Origin: an uncultured virus (IMG/VR IMGVR_UViG_3300008111_000027)
Lineage: Duplodnaviria > Heunggongvirae > Uroviricota > Caudoviricetes
Reading direction: 5' to 3' (one strand)
Length of the DNA: 63,300 nt
IMG/VR virus record: IMGVR_UViG_3300008111_000027
Coordinates: 62,001 to 125,300 of that record
Shown here: positions 39,369-63,253 of the stretch, piece by piece
How positions within the stretch are numbered: position 1 is the first letter of the stretch
How the letters are laid out: the number at the start of each line of letters is the position of its first letter
The notes under the pieces: generated by a model
The model's input: the letters and a program-made list of their open reading frames with translations, nothing else
Database searches by the model: none
What the model was told of the DNA's origin: nothing
Translations under genes and position numbers: made by a program

Positions 39369-41387
39369 ATGTCAGTAGATTTTTTCGAAGAAGGAAACAC
39401 AACCAACCCAAAGAAAACAAGGAAGGGTTCAACCACCCCTATCCTTGATAACTTTTCAAGAGATTTGAATAAAATGGTTGAAGAGGGTAAAGTAGACCCC
39501 GTTATAGGTCGAGATAGTGAGGTCAAGAGAATTGCACAGATATTATCTCGAAAAAAGAAAAACAACGTAGTAATAGTTGGTGATGCGGGTGTTGGTAAAT
39601 CAGCGTTGGTTGAAAAATTAGCACAAATGATTGTCAAGGGAGATTGTCCATCAAATCTTTTAGATAAGAGAATAGTCTCGTTAGATTTAACATCCTTAGT
39701 TGCTGGCACGAAATATAGAGGACAGTTTGAAGAAAGGATTAAAGCTATTCTAAATGAATTACAGAACGAACCAAACGTAATTGTATTCATAGATGAGATT
39801 CACACTATGGTTGGAGCGGGTAATGCTAGTGGTTCAATGGATGCTGCTAATATTATGAAACCCGCTTTAGCAAGGGGTGAAATTCAATGTATTGGTGCAA
39901 CAACATTTGACGAATTTAAAAAACATATCGAAAAAGATGGTGCGTTGGTTCGTAGATTCCAAAAGATAATCCTTAAAGAACCAACTAAAGAAGAAACCGT
40001 ACAAATTCTAAATAACCTAAGAGATTCTTATCAAAACTTCCATAAAGTTTTTTACGAACCGGAAGTTTTTGAAACTATTGTTAGTCTCTCATCTAGATTT
40101 ATCACGGACCGTCAGTTCCCCGATAAGGCGATTGACGTAATGGACGAATTAGGTTCTGATAAAAAAATCAACACAAAGATTCCCGAAATTATTGAAAAAC
40201 TTAAAAAGGAATCTGATGATTTGAAGGATAAAAAAATACAAGTCGTTAAAAGTCAAAACTACGAACAGGCAGCTAAGTTACGTGATGAAGAAAGAAAGTT
40301 ATTAAGTAAGTTAGATGAAGAGAAAAAGAAATGGTTAGATAAACAAAAAGACAATAAAACACCAGTAACAATTGCTGATGTTTACGAGATAATATCACAA
40401 ATAACTGGAGTACCTCTTTCTAAAATTGATGACAGAGAAACAACAAATCTATTAAATTTAGAAGAAAAATTAAAATCTAAAGTGATTGGACAGGACGAGG
40501 CAATATCAATCATCTCTAAAGCCATTAGAAGAAATAGAGTTGGTATCAAAGATACCAATAAACCAATCGGTTCTTTTATTTTCTTAGGTTCAACAGGTGT
40601 TGGTAAAACGTATCTCGCTAAAAGTATCGCCGAACTACTTTTTGGGGATGCTGAAAAAGTAATTCGTGTTGACATGAGTGAGTACATGGAAAAACACAAT
40701 GTTGCTAAATTAATCGGGTCACCTCCAGGATATGTTGGTTATGATGAAGGTGGACAACTCACTGAAAAAATCAAAAATAATCCATTCTCAGTAGTTCTAT
40801 TTGATGAGGTTGAAAAAGCACATAAAGATGTGTTCAACATTCTACTTCAAATATTGGATGAGGGGCACTTGACAGATTCTTTTGGAAGAAAAGTGAATTT
40901 TACCAACACTATTGTGATTATGACATCTAACATCGGTGCTAAAAAAGTATCCGAATTCGGTAAGGGTGTTGGGTTTAGTTCGTCGTCATCAACGTCTCAA
41001 AACTATGAAGTCAAAAAGTCAATTGTTCAAAAATCACTCAAACAACATTTTAATCCTGAGTTTTTAAATCGAGTAGATGATATAATCAGTTTTAATTCTT
41101 TAGATAAAGATGTGATTAAAAAGATTATTGAGATTGAATTGAATAAATTAGTAATCCGACTTAAAGAAAAGAATTTTAAAGTTTCTTTTGATAAAACAAT
41201 TGTAGAAAGGATATCTGAATTGAATACACAAGAAGATTTTGGTGCGAGACCTATTAAAAGAATTATCCAAAATATGTGTGAAGATTATTTAAGTGATTCA
41301 ATTTTAAGAGGTGAAATCAAAGAAAACGAAACAATTAATTTGAAAATTAAAGACGGAGAAATAAAAATTTTTAAAAAAAAGGGGTAA
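39369..41387 (+). CDS. clpC: ClpC-like Clp/Hsp100 ATPase lacking the N-terminal domain
   Basis: two AAA+ modules (GDAGVGKS, GSTGVGKT), UVR-like YEQAAKLRDEE, VGF loop, GARP. Confidence 0.88.
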   Translation: MSVDFFEEGNTTNPKKTRKGSTTPILDNFSRDLNKMVEEGKVDPVIGRDSEVKRIAQILSRKKKNNVVIVGDAGVGKSALVEKLAQMIVKGDCPSNLLDKRIVSLDLTSLVAGTKYRGQFEERIKAILNELQNEPNVIVFIDEIHTMVGAGNASGSMDAANIMKPALARGEIQCIGATTFDEFKKHIEKDGALVRRFQKIILKEPTKEETVQILNNLRDSYQNFHKVFYEPEVFETIVSLSSRFITDRQFPDKAIDVMDELGSDKKINTKIPEIIEKLKKESDDLKDKKIQVVKSQNYEQAAKLRDEERKLLSKLDEEKKKWLDKQKDNKTPVTIADVYEIISQITGVPLSKIDDRETTNLLNLEEKLKSKVIGQDEAISIISKAIRRNRVGIKDTNKPIGSFIFLGSTGVGKTYLAKSIAELLFGDAEKVIRVDMSEYMEKHNVAKLIGSPPGYVGYDEGGQLTEKIKNNPFSVVLFDEVEKAHKDVFNILLQILDEGHLTDSFGRKVNFTNTIVIMTSNIGAKKVSEFGKGVGFSSSSSTSQNYEVKKSIVQKSLKQHFNPEFLNRVDDIISFNSLDKDVIKKIIEIELNKLVIRLKEKNFKVSFDKTIVERISELNTQEDFGARPIKRIIQNMCEDYLSDSILRGEIKENETINLKIKDGEIKIFKKKG

Positions 41388-41579: not shown

Positions 41580-41993
41580 ATGGAATATACAAAAGATTTG
41601 ATTTTAGTGAGAGGGTTACCTGGTTCGGGTAAATCTACTTTAGGGGAGATAATTTTATACACTCCAAATAACCCGTTGAAACCATTGTCTGCGGACGATT
41701 ACTTTACAGATAAAGAGGGTAATTATAATTTCGACCCAACAAAATTAAGGGAAGCACATAATGATTGTCAACAAAGATGTGCCAATTTAATGATGAATAG
41801 TGTTGTTAGGGTTGTTGTTTCAAACACTTTTACACAAGAATGGGAAATGGAGCCATATTTTGAAATGGCTAAAAGATATGGTTACAGAGTTCACACTATT
41901 GTGGTTGAAAACAGACACGGTGGTGAGAACATACATGGAGTTCCTGAAGACAAATTAGAGATTATGAAAAATCGTTTTGAAATTAAGTTGTGA
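41580..41993 (+). CDS. P-loop kinase (AAA_33 / polynucleotide kinase-like)
   Basis: LVRGLPGSGKST, SADDYF, VVVSNTF, HGVP. Confidence 0.85.
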   Translation: MEYTKDLILVRGLPGSGKSTLGEIILYTPNNPLKPLSADDYFTDKEGNYNFDPTKLREAHNDCQQRCANLMMNSVVRVVVSNTFTQEWEMEPYFEMAKRYGYRVHTIVVENRHGGENIHGVPEDKLEIMKNRFEIKL

Positions 41994-43075
41994 TTGAAGT
42001 TTTAGAGAGATATCATAAGGATGGTTTGTTAATGAAACAAACTCACCCAACCAAAGATTTGTACATATGGAATTACACACCAAGAGTACAATATGAATCT
42101 TTGTGGGATGATATTACTATGCAATGTCGTGGTCTTATTACAACCCATTCAGGAGAAGTAATATCAAAACCATTTGGTAAATTTTTCAACTACGAAGAGG
42201 TTATTGATAAAAATTTAATTCCTTGGGATAGTGAGTATACTCACATCCAAGATAAAATGGATGGTTCTCTTGGAATCCTTTTCTTTTATGATGGTGAATG
42301 GATTATGTCAACAAGAGGTTCTTTTACCTCGGAACAATCCATTCGTGGTTTAGAAATTCTTAAATCAAAATATGATTTAAGTAAATTCATGAAGGAAGTT
42401 ACCTATTTATGTGAAATTATTTATCCCGAAAATAGGATAGTAGTGAACTATGGTTGTGATAAGATTACCTTTTTATCTGTAACAACACCCATAGGAGAAT
42501 TAAACTGGCACACCGCTCGAGCAATTTTTCATTCATCGGATATTGAAGAGAAAGATATTGTCGATAGCACTATGGTAACCTTCAACAAGGAAACATTTGA
42601 CAACTATAAAAAACTAAACACCCCAAATAGTGAAGGGTTTGTTATTCGTTTCTACCCATCGAACTTTAGAATGAAAATAAAATTCGAAGAGTATGTTCGT
42701 TTACATAGAATACTAACTAATGTGTCAAGTAGAGATATTTGGGAATATCTTAAAGAAGATAAACCATTTGATGAGTTACTTGAGAAGGTACCAGATGAAT
42801 TTAATAGTTGGGTGAAAGAAACGGTAAAGGACTTTGTGATTCGATTTGAAAATATCGAAAAGGAATATAAATGGATATTCAACAAAATTCGTAACGTTTA
42901 TTTTGAATCATACCAAAAAGAATTTACCCGAGCGGAGTTTGCTGAATTAGCTAAAAGATATTCCCACCCTTCAATACTGTTTAATATGTTGGATGGTAAA
43001 TCATATAAAAATATAATATGGAAAATATTATATCCACCATATTCAAAACCATTTAAAAAAGATGAAGAGAATTAG
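41990..43075 (+). CDS. RNA ligase, T4 Rnl1-like
   Basis: CRGLI, KFFN, KMDGSLG, TRGSF, EIIYP.NRIVV.Y, EGFV, KIKF..Y. Confidence 0.9.
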   Translation: MIEVLERYHKDGLLMKQTHPTKDLYIWNYTPRVQYESLWDDITMQCRGLITTHSGEVISKPFGKFFNYEEVIDKNLIPWDSEYTHIQDKMDGSLGILFFYDGEWIMSTRGSFTSEQSIRGLEILKSKYDLSKFMKEVTYLCEIIYPENRIVVNYGCDKITFLSVTTPIGELNWHTARAIFHSSDIEEKDIVDSTMVTFNKETFDNYKKLNTPNSEGFVIRFYPSNFRMKIKFEEYVRLHRILTNVSSRDIWEYLKEDKPFDELLEKVPDEFNSWVKETVKDFVIRFENIEKEYKWIFNKIRNVYFESYQKEFTRAEFAELAKRYSHPSILFNMLDGKSYKNIIWKILYPPYSKPFKKDEEN

Positions 43076-43502
43076 TAAGAAAAATCATACAATGAAAAAA
43101 AGAATTTATTTAGATGACGTTAGAACACCAGTACTAAAGGACGAATGGGTCATTGTTCGAACATATGAGGAGTTTGTTGAGAAAGTATCAGAAATTGGAT
43201 TGGAGAATATTAGTTTAATTTCTCTTGACCATGATTTAGGTGATACCGCAATGGCTGAATGGCATCGTAATGTTTATCATAATTACGAATTAGACTACAA
43301 CAACATCAAAGAAAAAACAGGTATGGATTGTACCAAGTGGTTAGTGGAACAATGGTTGGATGGTAAACCAGTTGTTGATGTTGTTATACATTCAGCTAAC
43401 GCGATTGGTAGTGCCAATATGATGGGTTACATCAACAATTACAGACACATCCATAGATTACCACAAAATTGTGTACGGGTTCAGATTGAACATACTGTAT
43501 AA
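43062..43502 (+). CDS. receiver-like domain (cyclic-phosphate-processing type, RNA-repair associated)
   Basis: IYLDDVR, SLDHDLG, TGMD, IHSAN; true start may be MKKRIYLDD. Confidence 0.75.
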   Translation: MKRISKKNHTMKKRIYLDDVRTPVLKDEWVIVRTYEEFVEKVSEIGLENISLISLDHDLGDTAMAEWHRNVYHNYELDYNNIKEKTGMDCTKWLVEQWLDGKPVVDVVIHSANAIGSANMMGYINNYRHIHRLPQNCVRVQIEHTV

Positions 43503-49698: not shown

Positions 49699-51615
49699 TT
49701 AAACTTTTATAAATTGTCTTGTTAATTGTTTATTATAATTATTCAAAATCAGATAATAATTACCTGATGATGCAGAACTCATATCAATTTGTTTGTAGGC
49801 AGTTGTTTCCATATAGTTAGTGGTAACAGAACCAACTTGTTTAATTAGTTGACCTCTATTATCATAGATGGAAACATTCATTGACATGTTTGGGTTGGGA
49901 AATTTTACTTCTAATTCAAACCAACCACCAGTTGGGTTTGGACGAATTGATGCTGTAATTTCATCAATGTCTTGATTCATAGGTGGTGCCATTTTGTACA
50001 TAATAACAGCAACACTACTAACTAAGTCAATATTCAAGTGGTCACCTCTTTCATCGGATGCGTCCATTAATTGTCTAACGTAAATATTACTCACAATATC
50101 ATTATTTCCAATAGGTGAAAATTTTAATTTAAATGGTGTTGCTTGACCAATTAAACCATCTTTAAATTGGTTATTCATACCACCAAATCTAATTGTACCA
50201 GCAGTTGCGTCATGTGTAACGTACTGTAACCATGGACCTCCGTTAAAATTAGATATGATTTCTTCAAATTTAACCTTGTTTTTATCATATTTCATTTCAA
50301 ACTGTAGACCATAATTATTATCACCATTAGTGTTTACATTAAATGGTACGTATATTGGTTGATTACCTGATGATGCGGTATTAGGTATCTCAACATCTAA
50401 TTTACCTTTAAACACCGCCTTAGCTACTAATACACCTGATGAGTTCCATACTCTCGATGAGTAAGTTCTGTCAACATCACCTTGAATAAAGTACTTAATG
50501 TTTACTGTCTTATTAGTTAATCCAACACTATCAGTAATAAAATTGGTGGCGGTTAAATGATTTGGCCAATCATTCCATTGTGTTGAACCTAACACTAATG
50601 AATCATAAACATCAGCGTGGAATGTTCTAATCATGGTTGTGGTGTCAATTTTTTTCATACCACTAACGTTTGCATAAATCAAGTATGGGTCACCACCATC
50701 TAACTTTCCGTTTTGGTTCATATCACCTATTAGATAAGCCAAGCCATTTTTCAAATATTGTTGACCAAATCCTTGGTTTACATCAGTTACTGTATATTCA
50801 TCATATGTTTTTACCGCGTCTGATATTGTCACTGCGTAATCTCTGAAAACTTCCATACTATCCGCGGGGAATCTTACAAGTAATTTATACTTAGTATTTT
50901 TATCTACGTTGTTAAGTGAGTAGAAACCCGCAGTGTCACAAAGTGCTGATGATACAAATGTACCTGTGTTGTATTTTGTACATATAACTGTTGGTCTTCT
51001 ACCATTTAGTTTCATTGTTGGCGGTAATTCAACAACACCACTGATAACCAAGTTACCCAAAAGTTCAAGATGCATGTCTTGAACATCTAAGATTGCAATG
51101 TTATCACCTATTGTAGTACCGTCATATTTGAACATTCGAGCCCAGTTTATTTCAACACTGTCCGCGTCGAAGTTCGATTCAACATCGTTGATGATAAATT
51201 TGTTGTGAATCAAAAAGGTGTCTTGGGTGATTTGAGAACCACTTGACAAAACCAAAAAGTTTCTTGCCACAGTGTAATTTGTATCCGTTGAATATGAGTA
51301 CAAACCAGTTCCCGAACTGTAGCTTGAGTATTTGTAGTTGTTAAAGAACTTAATCGAAAGTGCTGGTGTCATAGTACTCACAGTTGGGTCGACAGTTGTT
51401 GATACGTGAGTGAAAAGTTGTTTTCTATATTGAAAATCAACTTGGAAAGTTCTAACATCAACAGAAGATGCTGGTGTGTATTTAAACACAACATCAAGGG
51501 TGTCACCCCTTTTGATTGTTTTATACGCAACAGGATTACCAATCTGTGGCGTAGTTTGAGAAAACGCGGTCGTCGTAAAAATTAACGCGGTTAGGATAAA
51601 TAATAATTTTTTCAT
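49699..51615 (-). CDS. secreted cohesin/dockerin-like protein with T9SS type A C-terminal sorting domain
   Basis: signal peptide; FQVDFQY and GLQFEMKYD cohesin-like strands; GDMNQNGKLDGGD; PNPT...IYD.RGQLI...SGNYYL...RQFIKV. Confidence 0.72.
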   Translation of the reverse strand: MKKLLFILTALIFTTTAFSQTTPQIGNPVAYKTIKRGDTLDVVFKYTPASSVDVRTFQVDFQYRKQLFTHVSTTVDPTVSTMTPALSIKFFNNYKYSSYSSGTGLYSYSTDTNYTVARNFLVLSSGSQITQDTFLIHNKFIINDVESNFDADSVEINWARMFKYDGTTIGDNIAILDVQDMHLELLGNLVISGVVELPPTMKLNGRRPTVICTKYNTGTFVSSALCDTAGFYSLNNVDKNTKYKLLVRFPADSMEVFRDYAVTISDAVKTYDEYTVTDVNQGFGQQYLKNGLAYLIGDMNQNGKLDGGDPYLIYANVSGMKKIDTTTMIRTFHADVYDSLVLGSTQWNDWPNHLTATNFITDSVGLTNKTVNIKYFIQGDVDRTYSSRVWNSSGVLVAKAVFKGKLDVEIPNTASSGNQPIYVPFNVNTNGDNNYGLQFEMKYDKNKVKFEEIISNFNGGPWLQYVTHDATAGTIRFGGMNNQFKDGLIGQATPFKLKFSPIGNNDIVSNIYVRQLMDASDERGDHLNIDLVSSVAVIMYKMAPPMNQDIDEITASIRPNPTGGWFELEVKFPNPNMSMNVSIYDNRGQLIKQVGSVTTNYMETTAYKQIDMSSASSGNYYLILNNYNKQLTRQFIKV

Positions 51616-52713: not shown

Positions 52714-52783
52714 GGGCCTGATGTCAACGGCAGACCGTCTGATTTGCAATCAGAACGATTGGGTTCGATTCCCACAGTGTCCA
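52714..52783 (+). tRNA. tRNA-Ala(TGC), acceptor stem imperfect
   Basis: TCTGA TTTGCAA TCAGA arm; G3:U70; GTTCGATTC. Confidence 0.75.
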
Positions 52784-54021: not shown

Positions 54022-54099
54022 TGCGGGATGCGTAGAAAGTGGTCATCTCGTCAGTCTCATAAGCTGAAGTTCCCGGTTCGAGTCCGGGTCCCGCAACCA
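54022..54099 (+). tRNA. tRNA-Met(CAT), probably elongator
   Basis: TCAGT CTCATAA GCTGA; CCA. Confidence 0.85.
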
Positions 54100-54139: not shown

Positions 54140-54150
54140 GTTCTTTGAAA
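54140..54150 (+). promoter_or_regulatory. boxA-like antitermination element
   Basis: GTTCTTTGAAA; same motif at 55385, 61092, 62841. Confidence 0.6.
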
Positions 54151-55499: not shown

Positions 55500-55700
55500 A
55501 AAATGAAAAACTCCTTACAGAGGACGGATTAGCACCGTTGAAAGAAACTTTGGCTCTTGGGATTAGCTACCCAAATGAGTTACATGACCCAAAGTGAACT
55601 GTGATGGACCCTGCTCTGATGTGCACGTCAACAGGTGGACAGTAAACTATGTCCAATCAAATCTACAACTACGGTGAGCGTAGAAGGAGGTTTTCATTTT
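55500..55700 (+). ncRNA. unknown ~200-nt structured RNA D
   Basis: AAAATGAAAAACTCCTT / AAGGAGGTTTTCATTTT closing stem enclosing several hairpins. Confidence 0.6.
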
Positions 55701-55703
55701 AAT

Positions 55704-55775
55704 GGGCCCATAGTTAAAGGGATATAACTTCTCACTTCTAATGAGATGTTCCAAGTTCGAGTCTTGGTGGGCCTA
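55704..55775 (+). tRNA. tRNA-Arg(TCT)
   Basis: TCTCA CTTCTAA TGAGA. Confidence 0.92.
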
Positions 55776-58909: not shown

Positions 58910-59006
58910 AAATTTTTTTTGATTTTTTTTAAAAAAAACTTTGTTTTTAGAAAAAGTGTGCATATCTTTGTACCACTACAATAAATTACAACATTAATAC
59001 GACATT

Positions 59007-61079
59007 ATGACAACAAGGAATTTAGCAGCATTTCAAAAAGGTTTGGTATGTTCACCAAACGACGGTCAAGATAATAGAATCGCTGTAGCGACCGTACAAT
59101 CCCACTTAATGCAATGGGGTTACATGTTAGACGAAGATGCTTTCTTCGCGTTATCCAAATCAGATTTATCGTTTATTCAAAACTTCAATGACGAGGTATT
59201 GAATCATTTGAAAAATGTAATGGGGGGTAATCGTAATTACCAACCACTATATAAGAATTTCCCACAAGAAGTGATGGTTATGTCCGACTTCGAATTGTAT
59301 ATGAACGCAATTATACACTATTGGAGTAACGGTCAATGGGAACCATCAACTCATACTTATGAAAAAGAAATCAAGTTTGAGAAAATCAAATACAACTTGA
59401 TTAAGTATGGTACTTCTGAAAGATTCTCAAAAATCTTCACTGACTTGGTATCAATCAACACATCATTAACACCTCAAGACCTTGAGATTGTTAAATGGTT
59501 TGTATCAAGTGGTGAAACATTGATTTTTCCTGACACAATTCCTTTCAAAGAGAATTTGTGTACACTCGCGGGAATGGGAATCGAGGGATTACCAGTAAAG
59601 ACTTCAACCGACGTTTTAAGAATAGCCGTTCATCTTTCAGGTGGAGACATCAGTTTACCTAAAGTTCCTGAAAAGGAAATTAGACTAAACAGATGGTCTT
59701 CTACCAAAGGAGTAAATCCTGAAAGAGAAAAGTTCAAATTCAAGAAATTCACTCGTAAAGAGAGAAAATACATCTTGGGTTTACTTGAGAACACAAACTG
59801 TGACCCAAGAGAAATGGTTTTAAGAGACCAACGATGGGTTCGTTTAGGTGAAATCTTACACCCGGGTGAGTATAAAAACCAATTCCCTAAATCTTTTGAC
59901 GCGTTCAATAAGATTAGAAACGAGAAAGTTAAATCTTGGTTCTCTCTTGTAAATGAAGGTTTCAATAAAGGTATAGAGAATGGTTTGAGAGTATTGTCTC
60001 AAAGACCCGGTGAATTCTCTCGTCGATTAGATTGGTTGGTTCGTACATATCCACAAGATATTGAAACAATCATGAAATTCTTCGGAGAAGCGGTAAAAGG
60101 TACATCGAACAAAGTATTGTTTGAAGTTTACACTCACTTTGAAGGTCGTACTGAACCTAAAACAAATAGGTCGGTTATGATTAAAGGAGCGAGAAAACGT
60201 ACCGAATTACCATCACTACCAGCAATCCCTAAAGAGATTGTGGAAACCATCCACTCTAAATTATTTGAAACACTTAGAGATAAGTTTTCATTAATGGAAT
60301 CTTTGGGTAACTGTTGGATTGATGAGGAATTAAAAAAGATTCCTCTCCCAACCAACATGAGAAGTATGAACTTCTCAACCAAACCCATCATTAGAGGTCA
60401 GCGAGTTCCACTCGATAACCCTGATGCAAAAGTTATTAGACCATTTGTTCATTGGATGGACAAGCGTGGTTCTGAAGACTTGGATTTGAGTGTTACATTT
60501 GTTGGTGAGAAAGTGTCAGAAGTACTATCTTTCAGTAATTTGAGAGTCGGTAATTCTTGTCACTCGGGGGATGTGAGACACAGACAGGGTCCTTGTGCGG
60601 AGTACATCGACATCGACATTAAAGATGCGTTAAGTCGTGGATTCAAGTACGGAGTCATTGATGTGAGAAACTACAATGGAGGTACATTAAGTTCACTTGA
60701 AACATCCTTTGGTATCATGGAGAGAGAACACCCTGAATCAAATAAAACGTGGTTACCTGAGACAATTTCAAATTGTCAATCATTAGAATCTGAGTCATCA
60801 AACACTTTGATTGCGATTATTGACTTTGAAACCAAAGAGTACATCATGTTGGACATTGATTCAAGTGGTTTTGTAACCGCCAGGAGCGACTTCAAAAACA
60901 CCCTTAAAGTAATTCAACAATACGCTGAGTTACCAAAAGTAAGTGTTTATGACCTTATTCTTCTACACGTAGAAGGTCGAGGAAAACAAGTTACTCTTGA
61001 CGAGAATGTGGATACACATTTCAAGTACGAGGACTTCTGTTACTCTTATGAAGAGACAGGTAAATTGATGGGTGTCTAA
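59007..61079 (+). CDS. large protein with C-terminal TerD-like domain
   Basis: PLYKNFP..V, IPFKENL, TDVLR, LHPGEY, RPGEFSRRLD, DLDLS, HSGDV, AEYIDID; promoter TATCTTTG 58963-58970. Confidence 0.75.
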   Translation: MTTRNLAAFQKGLVCSPNDGQDNRIAVATVQSHLMQWGYMLDEDAFFALSKSDLSFIQNFNDEVLNHLKNVMGGNRNYQPLYKNFPQEVMVMSDFELYMNAIIHYWSNGQWEPSTHTYEKEIKFEKIKYNLIKYGTSERFSKIFTDLVSINTSLTPQDLEIVKWFVSSGETLIFPDTIPFKENLCTLAGMGIEGLPVKTSTDVLRIAVHLSGGDISLPKVPEKEIRLNRWSSTKGVNPEREKFKFKKFTRKERKYILGLLENTNCDPREMVLRDQRWVRLGEILHPGEYKNQFPKSFDAFNKIRNEKVKSWFSLVNEGFNKGIENGLRVLSQRPGEFSRRLDWLVRTYPQDIETIMKFFGEAVKGTSNKVLFEVYTHFEGRTEPKTNRSVMIKGARKRTELPSLPAIPKEIVETIHSKLFETLRDKFSLMESLGNCWIDEELKKIPLPTNMRSMNFSTKPIIRGQRVPLDNPDAKVIRPFVHWMDKRGSEDLDLSVTFVGEKVSEVLSFSNLRVGNSCHSGDVRHRQGPCAEYIDIDIKDALSRGFKYGVIDVRNYNGGTLSSLETSFGIMEREHPESNKTWLPETISNCQSLESESSNTLIAIIDFETKEYIMLDIDSSGFVTARSDFKNTLKVIQQYAELPKVSVYDLILLHVEGRGKQVTLDENVDTHFKYEDFCYSYEETGKLMGV

Positions 61080-61107
61080 ACCCACCCATCAGTTCTTTGA
61101 AATATTA

Positions 61108-61502
61108 TATGTGGCTATGTGAGCCATTGAGAGGATAGTCAACTGTCCATTACATCAAACCACGGAGTGGTTCTGTTTTGGACCTTAGCGGTGACAAAAG
61201 TATCAATGCAAACGTCTTACTTCTAACACACAACTATCAGATACATCGTTAGACACACAATCTCCACATAACTTCTTAGACGGCTATGTATTGGGTTACT
61301 TCTATCAAACAATTGGATGTTAAACCACCCGCACTCTTTCCGTTAATCATCTTAAGTGGCTATCTATCAACTTACTTCTAAAATTTAAGCTAAAAATCAA
61401 AAATCAGTTGTAGTCTTTCCACTTTTAAAATACACATGGCTATGTGTTCAGTTACTTCTACTTTGACTATTAATCAAAACCAATTACTGACACAGTTTCC
61501 AT
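61108..61502 (+). ncRNA. array of four related structured RNAs (GGCTAT...TTACTTCTA...T(T/C)TCC)
   Basis: units 61108-61270, 61279-61344, 61354-61424, 61436-61502 with covarying stems; boxA-like motif at 61092. Confidence 0.75.
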
Positions 61503-61544
61503 TTTTTAAAAACAACAAAATAAACAACATTTAAAACAACAATT

Positions 61545-61991
61545 ATGTCAACAAAGACCACCGATGAAAAAGTAAAAGAACTATTTGATTTAGTTCAAAG
61601 TAAAAAATTAGCAATTGAAAAAGCCGAAAGGCCTTGTTGGAAAACCAGTGGTAACTTCGGTTACTCAGCAAATTCCGCACATGACAGAACATCGATTCCA
61701 ACTATTACAGATGTACGTAAAATCGTAGAGATGTACGCATTTCTTATGGAAAGAAAAGATAAATCCGAATCTGCAGCCAAAGAACTTGGTGTGAATTATA
61801 AATTCACTTGGTTAGGATTTACTGTCGATGAGTGGAAAGACGATTTTCAAACAAGAGTTAATCAAATTTCAATTCAAGAAAAACGTAAAGAACTTTCTGA
61901 AATCGAATCTCGTTTGAACTCATTAATTTCACCAGAATTAAAAGCTCAAATGGAATTGGAAGCAATTACAGAGTTACTTAACGAAAAGTAA
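61545..61991 (+). CDS. hypothetical coiled-coil protein
   Basis: ORF directly after the RNA array; F.WLGFTV.EW..D. Confidence 0.75.
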   Translation: MSTKTTDEKVKELFDLVQSKKLAIEKAERPCWKTSGNFGYSANSAHDRTSIPTITDVRKIVEMYAFLMERKDKSESAAKELGVNYKFTWLGFTVDEWKDDFQTRVNQISIQEKRKELSEIESRLNSLISPELKAQMELEAITELLNEK

Positions 61992-62050
61992 TTTCTTGGT
62001 TTTTTGAAACCAAGTGGTGGAGTCGAACCGTAAAACCGGTCGTCCCGAGG

Positions 62051-62081
62051 AAGGGTTGGGTAACCGACCCTTTCTTTTTTT
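62051..62081 (+). terminator. intrinsic terminator
   Basis: AAGGGTTGG GTAA CCGACCCTT + U tract. Confidence 0.75.
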
Positions 62082-62107
62082 GAATATTTTTTAGTATATT
62101 TACATAT

Positions 62108-62827
62108 ATGAGAATTGTTTGTATATCCGACACCCATTCCTTACATGAAGGAATGTTATATAACATCCCAAATGGGGATATATTAATCCATGCTGGTGAT
62201 TGTACAAACGTCGGTCGACAAAACGAGGTGAGAGAGTTTATTGAATGGTTTCAAAACATTGAAGGTTTTACCTATAAAATTTTCATTGCGGGTAATCATG
62301 ATTTTGCGTTTGAAAGGGAACCAACATGGTTAAATTTATATTTGGACCCAAACATATTGGCGGAACATAATGTTACATATTTGGAAGACGGTGAATTAGA
62401 AATAGTTAGTTCGGAATTTTCAAGACCTATAAAAATATATGGTTCACCATGGCAACCTGAATTTTTTGATTGGGCATTCAACTTACCAAGAAATGGGGAT
62501 GTCTTGAAATCGAGATGGGATGACATACCTAACAATACTGACATATTAATTACTCACGGTCCACCACATGGAATTAGAGATTTTACACCTAATAACTTAC
62601 AGGTTGGATGTGAATTATTAAGAGAACGTGTTGAAGTTTTAAAACCACTTTTACATGTTTTTGGTCATATACATGGTGCTTATGGTATTGTGGAAATGAA
62701 TGATACTGTATTTGTAAATGCATCAACGTGTACTGAAAGGTATCAACCAATAAATAAACCATGGGTTTTTGATTTAACAGAAATTGATGGTATATTTACA
62801 ATAAATTTTATAGACGAAGAAAATTAA
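62108..62827 (+). CDS. metallophosphoesterase (calcineurin-like)
   Basis: SDTH, HAGD, GNHD, THGPP, GHIH. Confidence 0.92.
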   Translation: MRIVCISDTHSLHEGMLYNIPNGDILIHAGDCTNVGRQNEVREFIEWFQNIEGFTYKIFIAGNHDFAFEREPTWLNLYLDPNILAEHNVTYLEDGELEIVSSEFSRPIKIYGSPWQPEFFDWAFNLPRNGDVLKSRWDDIPNNTDILITHGPPHGIRDFTPNNLQVGCELLRERVEVLKPLLHVFGHIHGAYGIVEMNDTVFVNASTCTERYQPINKPWVFDLTEIDGIFTINFIDEEN

Positions 62828-62854
62828 CTATCTTTGTCCTGTTCTTTGACTTAT

Positions 62855-63253
62855 GGGGGTGTATGGAATCGATTGGCGTACATATGGTAAATGGGCACGT
62901 AGTCAGACTTCATCTATGACTTTAATCCATGGTGGAAATTTTTAAGCGGCAACGTTTACAACAACATGGAAGTAGCAGGTCTTCTTGCAACTTCTAAAGT
63001 TGCGGCCTAATTGGTCGTAACTGACGGGTCGATGGACACATAACCTTGGAACAGAAGTCCTTACGGTGTGATACCACCTTAGAGTGTCAAAGGTCTCGTT
63101 CAGAGTGCTACCTATTAAAGTGAACTCGACACAGTTGATGGTAACGATGTCAAAATAGGAACCACCTATTTGTCGGTTATGAATAATCGAATAAACGTGT
63201 AGTCCATTTATGGTATTGCGAGCAAGACGCGGGTTCGAAACCCGCCACCTCCA
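62855..63253 (+). ncRNA. ssrA: tmRNA
   Basis: GGGGGTG/CACCTCC-A acceptor with G3:U, T-arm GCGGG TTCGAAA CCCGC, tag ORF 62948-63010 GNVYNNMEVAGLLATSKVAA*. Confidence 0.92.

Follow-up and report, generated by a model that had tools for sequence, protein, structure and literature searches.

Four RNA units downstream of a large gene

The subject of this analysis is a set of four head-to-tail units on the + strand of a phage genome fragment, lying between the stop codon of a 690-amino-acid (aa) open reading frame (ORF; protein P0001) and a 148-aa ORF (protein P0002). The fragment, referred to as the window, is the final 63.3 kb (63,300 nucleotides, nt) of the 125.3-kb IMG/VR phage record IMGVR_UViG_3300008111_000027. 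The units are small structured RNA genes of a family that is absent from Rfam 15; three of them are ~65-70 nt long and one has 163 nt. The features of the locus are as follows (bit scores and E values of the units are those of R1, a covariance model of the units that was built from units on three contigs, L263, L260 and L276).

59007..61079 (+): ORF of the 690-aa protein P0001, an N-terminal alpha-solenoid joined to a TerD-fold beta-sandwich
61092..61102 (+): GTTCTTTGAAA motif, 5 nt before unit 1; a possible promoter or processing signal
61108..61270 (+): unit 1, 163 nt; TATGTGG...CCACATA; inserted multi-helix domain of ~90 nt at 61122-61212; partial R1 match at 61214-61254
61279..61344 (+): unit 2; GACGG...CCGTT; loop with ACAAUUGGAUGUU, which is kept in related phages (alignment A4, below); 65.7 bits, E 9e-15
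61354..61424 (+): unit 3; AAGTGG...CCACTT; A-rich loop; 74 bits, E 6e-17
61436..61502 (+): unit 4; ATGG...CCAT; anticodon-arm-like hairpin UUUGA-CUAUUAA-UCAAA at 61462-61478; 67.9 bits
61503-61507 (+): T run after unit 4
61545..61991 (+): gene of the 148-aa protein P0002, 3' of the array; phrog_2574, function unknown
62047..62076 (+): strong terminator-like hairpin (13-pair stem, then a T run), which closes the stretch made up of protein gene, array and 148-aa gene

Read from its 5' end, a unit consists of a GG-ended terminal stem strand, CTAT, a 9-nt stem strand, TTACTTCTA and 22-25 variable nt, followed in the 3' half by the partner of that stem strand, a short bulge rich in pyrimidines, CC and the closing strand of the terminal stem. 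As RNA, the units share an internal loop (CUAU / NYUUU) and a stem of 8 bp from which one U bulges out; the invariant UUACUUCUA comes next and leads into a variable module. A preliminary description of the window, made from its letters alone, had assigned one layout to all four units. This is accurate for units 2-4; unit 1 departs from it by the ~90-nt insertion at 61122-61212, which is structured (as judged from its predicted fold) and splits the inner stem into two parts.

Chance is excluded as the origin of the array, since the pattern GGCTAT-N(7-11)-TACTTCTA, which occurs three times, is found in none of 100 shuffles. Exact TTACTTCTA is present in five copies in the window, four of them within 61217-61460, and a repeat search returns a 31-nt unit in three copies (spaced 76 and 80 nt apart, with 71-74% identity). 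Nothing similar to the units is found in the 125-kb record outside the array.

The window contains the GTTCTTTGAAA motif in exact form three times, once (54140-54150) at 5 nt before tRNA-Met (54156); copies with one mismatch precede tRNA-Ser and tRNA-Leu. The observation of the preliminary description that this boxA-like motif precedes the tRNAs and the tmRNA as well agrees with the copies before tRNA genes and fails for the tmRNA, directly before which the window has no exact copy.

Conservation of the RNA structure and its linkage to a protein gene

The stems of units 2-4 are reproduced by minimum free energy (MFE) folds, and the MFE fold of unit 4 includes the TTTGA-CTATTAA-TCAAA hairpin. 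The weight of the evidence comes from relatives. A pattern scan of IMG/VR finds a homologous array of seven units (L070) that is likewise placed between homologues of both flanking ORFs, together with more arrays on other contigs. In a MAFFT alignment of 10 simple units from four records (A2), 96.9% of cells are standard-paired and 11 of 14 pairs show double changes; the covariation score of this alignment is reached by 0 of 500 shuffles, and slid controls are 31-49% paired. Two larger alignments were fitted to the covariance model: A4 (59 R1 matches) has 95.8% pairing and double changes at 12 of 13 pairs, and A7 (77 matches, from distant loci) has 93.7% pairing, with 13 of 13 pairs so changed. 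The insertion that sets unit 1 apart is kept in 14 related arrays, and 12 of its 28 predicted pairs hold by way of double changes in an alignment of orthologues. The four units with covarying stems are thus present at the locus as the preliminary description had them, by sequence, by pattern shuffles and by covariation.

The conserved part of the unit, which can be thought of as a handle, has the consensus N3-GG / CYAY / 3 bp, bulged U, 5 bp / UU(A/C)CUUCUA ... / NYUUU / CC-N3. Its helices are rich in G-U and U-G pairs (single pairs show, for example, UG:8 and GU:9). The units have no credible match in Rfam 15, either in the whole window at gathering score or in 60900-62200 at E ≤ 10, and a scan of eight related loci at E ≤ 1 yields nothing over the bacterial units. 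No tRNA is called in the array (61092-61502) by ARAGORN or by the Rfam tRNA model RF00005. The novelty of the family with respect to Rfam, which the preliminary description had left dependent on such a scan, is upheld.

The RNA is linked to the gene of the large protein. R1 finds matches in 72 of 76 viral loci that carry a homologue of P0001, over a range of protein identity of 25-96%. Among close relatives of the protein the figure is 23 of 24 loci (the exception lacks flanking sequence), with every match on the + strand once loci are oriented by the protein gene. Among further viral loci, reaching down to 25% protein identity and found with an 11-row protein alignment (A5), it is 49 of 52, and 110 of 110 matches lie on the strand of the protein gene, directly upstream or downstream of it. 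Distant family members P0185 and P0232, used as queries, bring up no relatives in viral contigs. In bacterial genomes (Paenibacillus, Brevibacillus, Priestia, Bacillus, Planctomycetota, Acidobacteriota and others) 63 of 80 loci have a match, and all 83 matches are again on the protein strand; besides the protein itself, these bacterial loci have no conserved neighbour. Related arrays comprise up to 7 units and may lie upstream or downstream of the protein gene. Searching with a covariance model has accordingly brought to light arrays beside homologues of the protein in phages as well as in bacteria, and the linkage of the RNA to the gene of the 690-aa protein, from which a partnership had been surmised at one locus, is widespread.

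The background was gauged on 77 control viral loci (397 kb) chosen for nothing but a 15-base pattern: R1 gives 4 matches there, in 3 loci, and 2 of the 4 probably belong to a genuine array at the end of a contig. The three cultured phages examined all have matches, in unannotated gaps beside a homologue annotated as 'hypothetical protein': three in Xanthomonas phage XacN1 (best 44.5 bits), three in Rhodococcus phage Weasels2, and weak ones in Rhodobacter phage RcXuper (best E 0.027). In XacN1 and RcXuper a neighbouring 'nucleotidyltransferase' is RlaP, which a comparative study of jumbo phages (PMC7824862) places, as an RNA-repair enzyme, alongside RNA ligases.

The frequent G-U pairs and an orientation that is strictly that of the neighbouring gene indicate that it is RNA rather than DNA that is conserved, as the preliminary description had argued from the covariation of four units. 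A repeat acting at the level of DNA (a recombination site, an iteron or a hairpin in single-stranded DNA) would be in keeping with the tandem arrangement and its inverted repeats. Such a repeat is nevertheless extremely improbable: the common G-U and U-G pairs would turn into A-C mismatches if the opposite strand were read, all 193 R1 matches in protein-oriented viral and bacterial loci are on the coding strand, and the variable modules are tRNA-like.

Three observations made at related loci stand apart from this argument. GOLLD RNA (RF02032; L258 6772-7064, +; 210 bits, cut by the locus end) is found 1.5 kb downstream of a related array. In RcXuper, a permuted alpha-type tmRNA (L325 1716-2132, +) lies directly upstream of the units, in an unannotated stretch. 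An amber-reading tRNA with anticodon CUA (printed by ARAGORN as tRNA-Pyl) is located just upstream of the protein gene at L251 2313-2385, L256 2334-2408 and L265 2072-2143.

The 690-residue protein and its genomic setting

P0001 belongs to a family with at least 1497 matches in a 5.8-billion-sequence collection; at 50% identity and E ≤ 0.001 the family comprises 2425 clusters. By sequence it corresponds to phrog_33734 (function unknown; E 5.4e-54). Pfam has no family for it (E ≤ 0.01) or for 40 diverse members (E ≤ 0.1), and PADLOC gives no match for P0001 or for two bacterial homologues. The only curated family that matches P0001 and its bacterial homologues is NCBIfam NF041916 (MXAN_6230/SCO0854 family RING domain-containing protein), at 231.5 bits (E 1.8e-68) and 460-492 bits, respectively. 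All of these scores are below the equivalog cut-off of 600 bits, so that the proteins are related to that family without being members of it. The RING part of NF041916 is not demonstrated in P0001, because the best-matching stretch is confined to profile positions 386-766. The locus tags SCO0854 and MXAN_6230 occur in no paper that was found.

An AlphaFold2 model based on 40 sequences (predicted local distance difference test, pLDDT, of 91; predicted template-modelling score, pTM, of 0.85) divides the protein into two parts. Residues ~473-636 have the fold of TerD: Foldseek assigns probability 1.0 to 3ibz, 2kxt and 2qz7, with template-modelling (TM) scores (by target) of 0.58-0.67, and VIA-align gives Z 12.8 for 2qz7_B (147 residues aligned, root-mean-square deviation, rmsd, 2.5) and Z 11.7 for 2kxt. 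The TerD-domain label of the preliminary description is therefore right at the level of fold, and is not reproduced by the Pfam TerD model (PF02342), which matches neither P0001 nor the 40 members. PF02342 is carried by 22% of the members of an Atlas cluster of relatives (a lead only). Classical TerD is, moreover, a single-domain protein of ~190 aa encoded in ter operons; here the domain makes up the C-terminal end of a protein of 690 aa, in a neighbourhood free of ter genes. Residues D493, S520-G521-D522 and E532 are invariant in the protein alignment, in stretches that we take to recall the calcium-binding motifs of TerD. As to fused forms of the protein, no homologue of 1209-3450 aa was found (weak evidence), and eight representatives of 785-845 aa show no convincing Pfam domain.

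The N-terminal ~440 residues form a helical solenoid. Most of its structural matches are HEAT-type pieces of ~90 residues, and the sole structural alignments of the model that extend over 238-310 residues are to Ro60 chains. VIA-align scores these at Z 5.9 and 5.4 for Xenopus 1yvp (1yvp_A: 310 aligned, rmsd 4.4), at Z 5.7-6.7 for 9l5y_B, the Ro60 of Thermus phage phiLo (238-291 aligned; PMC12135203), and at Z 5.2 for Deinococcus 2nvo_A. These values (Z 5.2-6.7, rmsd 4.4-6.4 Å) denote a weak likeness, of a kind that helical repeats also reach by chance. P0001 shares with Ro60 the arrangement of an alpha-helical repeat body followed by a domain of metal-binding type. It differs in that this second domain is a TerD beta-sandwich rather than a vWA domain, and in that no TROVE/Ro60 match is obtained by sequence or profile (Pfam and PDB sequence and profile searches for P0001; Pfam for the 40 members). 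With no TROVE match and structural Z scores of 5-7, P0001 is not a demonstrable Ro60 homologue. Nor does a TROVE protein (PF05731) turn up in the phage record that holds the window, or in five related phage records with these RNAs, in searches for which control genomes were positive.

The 148-aa protein downstream of the array is without a Pfam, PADLOC or NCBIfam family and without an informative Atlas cluster; Nmad5, at a score of 0.76, is a weak lead only. Its homologues accompany the RNA in 29 of 76 viral loci, all of them close relatives. The idea that this protein is a partner of the RNA accordingly fits close relatives and does not extend to the family at large.

The window contains 25 tRNA genes and a tmRNA, and an RNA-repair cassette of three adjacent genes (41580-43502, +) that encode an AAA_33 kinase (E 2.9e-13), an Rnl1-type RNA ligase (PF09511, E 8.5e-15) and a PF20274 protein (E 1.4e-22), PF20274 being the cyclic-phosphate processing receiver domain (cREC). 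A metallophosphoesterase and an RNase H-like protein flank the locus. By blastn, DNA 59000-62900 has no match among GenBank phages.

Several further features of the window may be recorded here. Freshwater-1 RNA (RF02979) is present at 55600-55661 (+), inside the tRNA array, with 84.7 bits (gathering score 72). Two extra weak Rfam tRNA matches, at 52714-52783 and 54023-54095 (+), score 31.8 and 35.1 bits; ARAGORN does not call the first. A phage-encoded ClpB-like double AAA+ protein (39369-41387, +) matches AAA_2 (E 1.6e-70) and ClpB_D2-small. A 638-aa protein (49699-51615, -) has a Por_Secre_tail domain (type IX secretion sorting; E 3.2e-8), which hints at a host among the Bacteroidota. Beyond the 148-aa gene, 61989-62085 (+) contains hairpins, the strong terminator and a weak CsrC-like Rfam match (20.1 bits). 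A 34-nt piece of this stretch (61989-62022) is also found within high-depth (163-205x) RNA-library contigs, which continue differently on both sides, so that the piece must be shared with something else.

Display modules, probable free RNAs and a proposed Ro/Y-like particle

The part of the unit that is set into the handle loop is 15-70 nt long across relatives, and 131 of 136 units could be parsed to give 125 distinct loops. In 29 of these 125, a hairpin stem of 4 bp or longer carries a 7-nt YU-NNN-R-N loop (shuffles: mean 2.5, maximum 6 in 200). The anticodon-arm mimic that had been pointed out in unit 4 belongs to this class and is thus a recurrent and enriched element of the RNA family. 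Orthologues of unit 4 keep the hairpin and vary its central triplet (AUU, GAU, UCA, CGA, ACA, UUU). In the window's own units, this hairpin is the only tRNA-like element. Elsewhere, a T-arm-like hairpin is found in 8 of the 125 loops, 7 of which also have GGUUA, as in the D-loop.

Mimicry of tRNA parts goes further in some relatives. Four related arrays end in a chimeric tRNA of 123-137 nt (Rfam tRNA, 41-56 bits; not called by ARAGORN) in which the handle replaces the anticodon arm:

L070 2954-3079 (-): chimeric tRNA
L258 5151-5277: chimeric tRNA
L261 6049-6185: chimeric tRNA
L256 5205-5327: chimeric tRNA

In these molecules UUACUUCUA takes the place of the anticodon loop, and in the window itself UUACUUCUA resembles positions 29-37 of tRNA-Arg(UCU), TCACTTCTA at 55732-55740; both are leads only. 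Handle-bearing units in L326, L325 and L291 enclose, in the permuted order typical of YrlA, a T-arm followed by a closed stem and a D-arm. Rfam YrlA gives partial matches inside them (26.4, 39.6 and 40.7 bits), which are under the gathering score of 69 because only model positions ~23-86 of 114 match. In the window, YrlA has no match at gathering score, nor at E ≤ 10 over 60900-62200.

The units might be degenerate tRNA remnants, or punctuation hairpins that mark processing sites in tRNA-region transcripts, with no partner protein. The presence of tRNA genes within 2.5 kb in 27 of 53 loci, the interspersion of units with tRNAs in L004, the handle of the chimeric tRNAs and the likeness of UUACUUCUA to TCACTTCTA of tRNA-Arg(UCU) can all be read in this way. 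Against it, the handle covaries fully and is kept across a range that spans Bacillota chromosomes and jumbo phages, the units are not called by ARAGORN or Rfam tRNA, and 26 of the 53 loci have no tRNA nearby, so that the handle tracks the protein gene rather than tRNA genes. A tRNA remnant is on balance decidedly improbable.

An array of guide RNAs, in which the handle would load into the protein and the variable loop would pair with a nucleic-acid target, had been suggested by the preliminary description as one role of the loops. Conserved and variable segments do alternate with a period of 76-80 nt beside a single, tightly linked large protein gene, as in CRISPR and other repeat-plus-variable arrays, and 7-nt loops of U-turn type, which speed RNA-RNA pairing, are present. 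The loops are, on the other hand, 'variable' in one sense only: they differ among the units of an array and are conserved, not diversified, between related phages. Many of the modules are folded tRNA-like domains and not open guides. The 'repeat' stems covary instead of being identical, structure being kept and sequence not (31-nt identity 71-74%), and no cas genes are present. Complementarity of the loops to the rest of the 125-kb record reaches 11-13 nt at the longest, which 28-61 of 100 shuffled loops equal (a comparison that takes in neither the host nor the 59% of the phage genome absent from the record); the absence of above-chance complementarity to the phage record speaks against a guide role, and the array is improbable as a set of guides.

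On the question of whether the units are free small RNAs or parts of a messenger, several loci are informative. Brevibacillus (L384) and Laceyella (L339) each have a ~65-nt unit with a promoter-like site ahead of it and a U7 run behind it; the Brevibacillus unit, moreover, is 2 kb from the protein gene, behind an ORF on the opposite strand. U runs follow 18 of 101 bacterial and 22 of 136 viral units as defined by a regular expression, unit 4 of the window among them, compared with 1.1-1.6% of random 9-mers. In a complete phage (G001) the units stand within the tRNA array, and 5 kb separates them from the gene of the protein. The promoter-like sites, the U runs, GTTCTTTGAAA before unit 1 and tRNA-Met, and the placement in a tRNA array favour separate small RNAs.

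The chief rival, especially for bacteria, is a cis-acting element of the protein's own mRNA (an autoregulatory operator, a stabiliser or an attenuator). This is what the 63 of 80 bacterial loci with a same-strand unit would lead one to consider: the unit is present there in 1-2 copies and mostly 50-250 nt before the start codon. The window has no terminator between protein gene, array and 148-aa gene until 62047, and RNA-library contigs span the borders between array and genes (libraries X15, X16 and X18 have contigs that cover the array in part; X17 has none there). A cis element is harder to reconcile with an array that is downstream of the gene in many phages, with up to 7 units per array that each have different conserved modules, with the units 5 kb off in a tRNA array and 2 kb off in Brevibacillus, and with the promoter-like site and U run that some units have of their own; tRNA-like display domains would serve no purpose in a simple operator. 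Taken together, these points make a cis-acting element unlikely as the explanation of the family.

The known RNAs that the units most resemble are the Y RNAs, described in Chen et al. 2014 (PMC4201824) as molecules of 80-130 nt with an end-paired stem that holds a protein site, a modular loop, tRNA-like domains, and several copies beside a protein gene. With the YrlA Y RNAs (RF02553) the units have in common a long stem that joins the presumed 5' and 3' ends (a stem which covariation supports here), a large modular loop, and one to several copies beside the gene of one large helical-repeat protein. Processing from a common precursor is a feature of known Y RNA cases, and further parallels are the order of T-arm, AS stem and D-arm in some members, the occurrence in phages, and RNA-repair neighbourhoods (RlaP here). 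The differences are equally clear. The handle stem GG-CUAY...UU(A/C)CUUCUA...YUUUCC is new, arrays extend to 7 units, no unit attains the Rfam gathering score of 69 and those of the window have no YrlA match at all, and the genes adjoin that of a solenoid/TerD-fold protein, not a Ro60/TROVE gene. The likeness to Y RNA and Ro that the preliminary description had noted is sustained by the YrlA-type tRNA-like domain in units of three related arrays; it is not sustained by P0001 as a Ro60 homologue.

The best-supported explanation is a particle of a known, Ro/Y-like kind in which both the RNA handle and the protein partner are new. Each RNA consists of two parts: a conserved handle (a terminal helix ended by G-G/C-C, the CUAY / NYUUU loop, the 8-bp helix with its bulged U and the invariant single-stranded UU(A/C)CUUCUA) and a variable display module set into its loop. 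The handle would be the docking site of the 690-aa protein, with UACUUCUA and the CUAY/YUUU loop as candidate contacts. Held in this way, in a particle that would work like that of Ro60 and its Y RNAs, the display module, which is often a mimic of a part of tRNA (an anticodon arm or a D-loop/T-arm elbow or, in relatives, a whole YrlA-type T-AS-D domain or a chimeric tRNA), would engage tRNA-recognising factors. During infection the particle would act on such factors or compete for them; its possible roles are the recruitment of enzymes for repair or processing and the titration of host nucleases directed at tRNA. The 25 tRNAs, the tmRNA and the kinase/Rnl1-ligase cassette of the window make a tRNA-centred conflict or RNA repair and quality control its likely task.

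A number of points count against such a particle. Folding energies hardly beat shuffles (z -1.48, -0.47, -1.95 and -2.57 for units 1-4, and -0.74 for the whole region); folding energy alone being unconvincing, the case rests on the comparison with relatives. In that comparison, alignments A4 and A7 were fitted to the model, and their pair counts are biased towards it. The locus counts are not independent, several loci being near-identical; the source contigs of R1 (L263, L260 and L276) recur among the loci later scanned with it; and R1 finds nothing in 4 of the 76 viral loci or in 17 of the 80 bacterial ones. The weak structural likeness to Ro60 and the missing TROVE match have been mentioned, as have the YrlA matches, all of them below 69 bits and none within the window's own four units. 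In metatranscriptomes, the depth of contigs is 2.6-6.4 on the array and 14-56 on the protein gene, figures that cannot show transcription, ends, strand or level, and the bacterial unit sits upstream of its gene as a cis-regulatory leader would. All this considered, the probability that the units and the 690-aa protein form a particle like that of Ro60 and Y RNA, tied to tRNA conflict or repair, can be put at roughly 55%; binding, RNA ends and role are what we infer.

A more far-reaching version of the Ro/Y-like particle is tentative. It would be a widespread and hitherto unrecognised ribonucleoprotein of large phages and bacteria, whose solenoid/TerD-fold protein, analogous to Ro60 or very distantly related to it, carries exchangeable small RNAs with modules that mimic tRNA parts (anticodon arms whose triplet varies, elbows, entire tRNA-like bodies); in phages, these might constitute a set of decoys or adaptors directed at host enzymes that cut or sense tRNA. 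No description of the RNA or of the RNA-protein pair was found in the literature, supplements and subscription journals being outside the coverage of the search. Searches with motif strings give only unrelated siRNA and miRNA papers among the matches listed, and a 2026 preprint on noncoding families leaves Y RNA, Ro60 and TerD unmentioned.

A very large protein family, for which there is no Pfam family, on which no paper was found and whose sole name is one NCBIfam label, now has a conserved candidate RNA partner. If the particle is real, it would be a second, independent Ro/Y-like system in bacteria and phages, and would give a function to unannotated gaps in the genomes of the cultured jumbo phages XacN1, Weasels2 and RcXuper. 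The finding bears on why phages keep tRNA-like RNAs beside tRNA arrays and repair enzymes, and the design of the RNA, a handle plus a module, would be a natural scaffold for the display of RNA modules.

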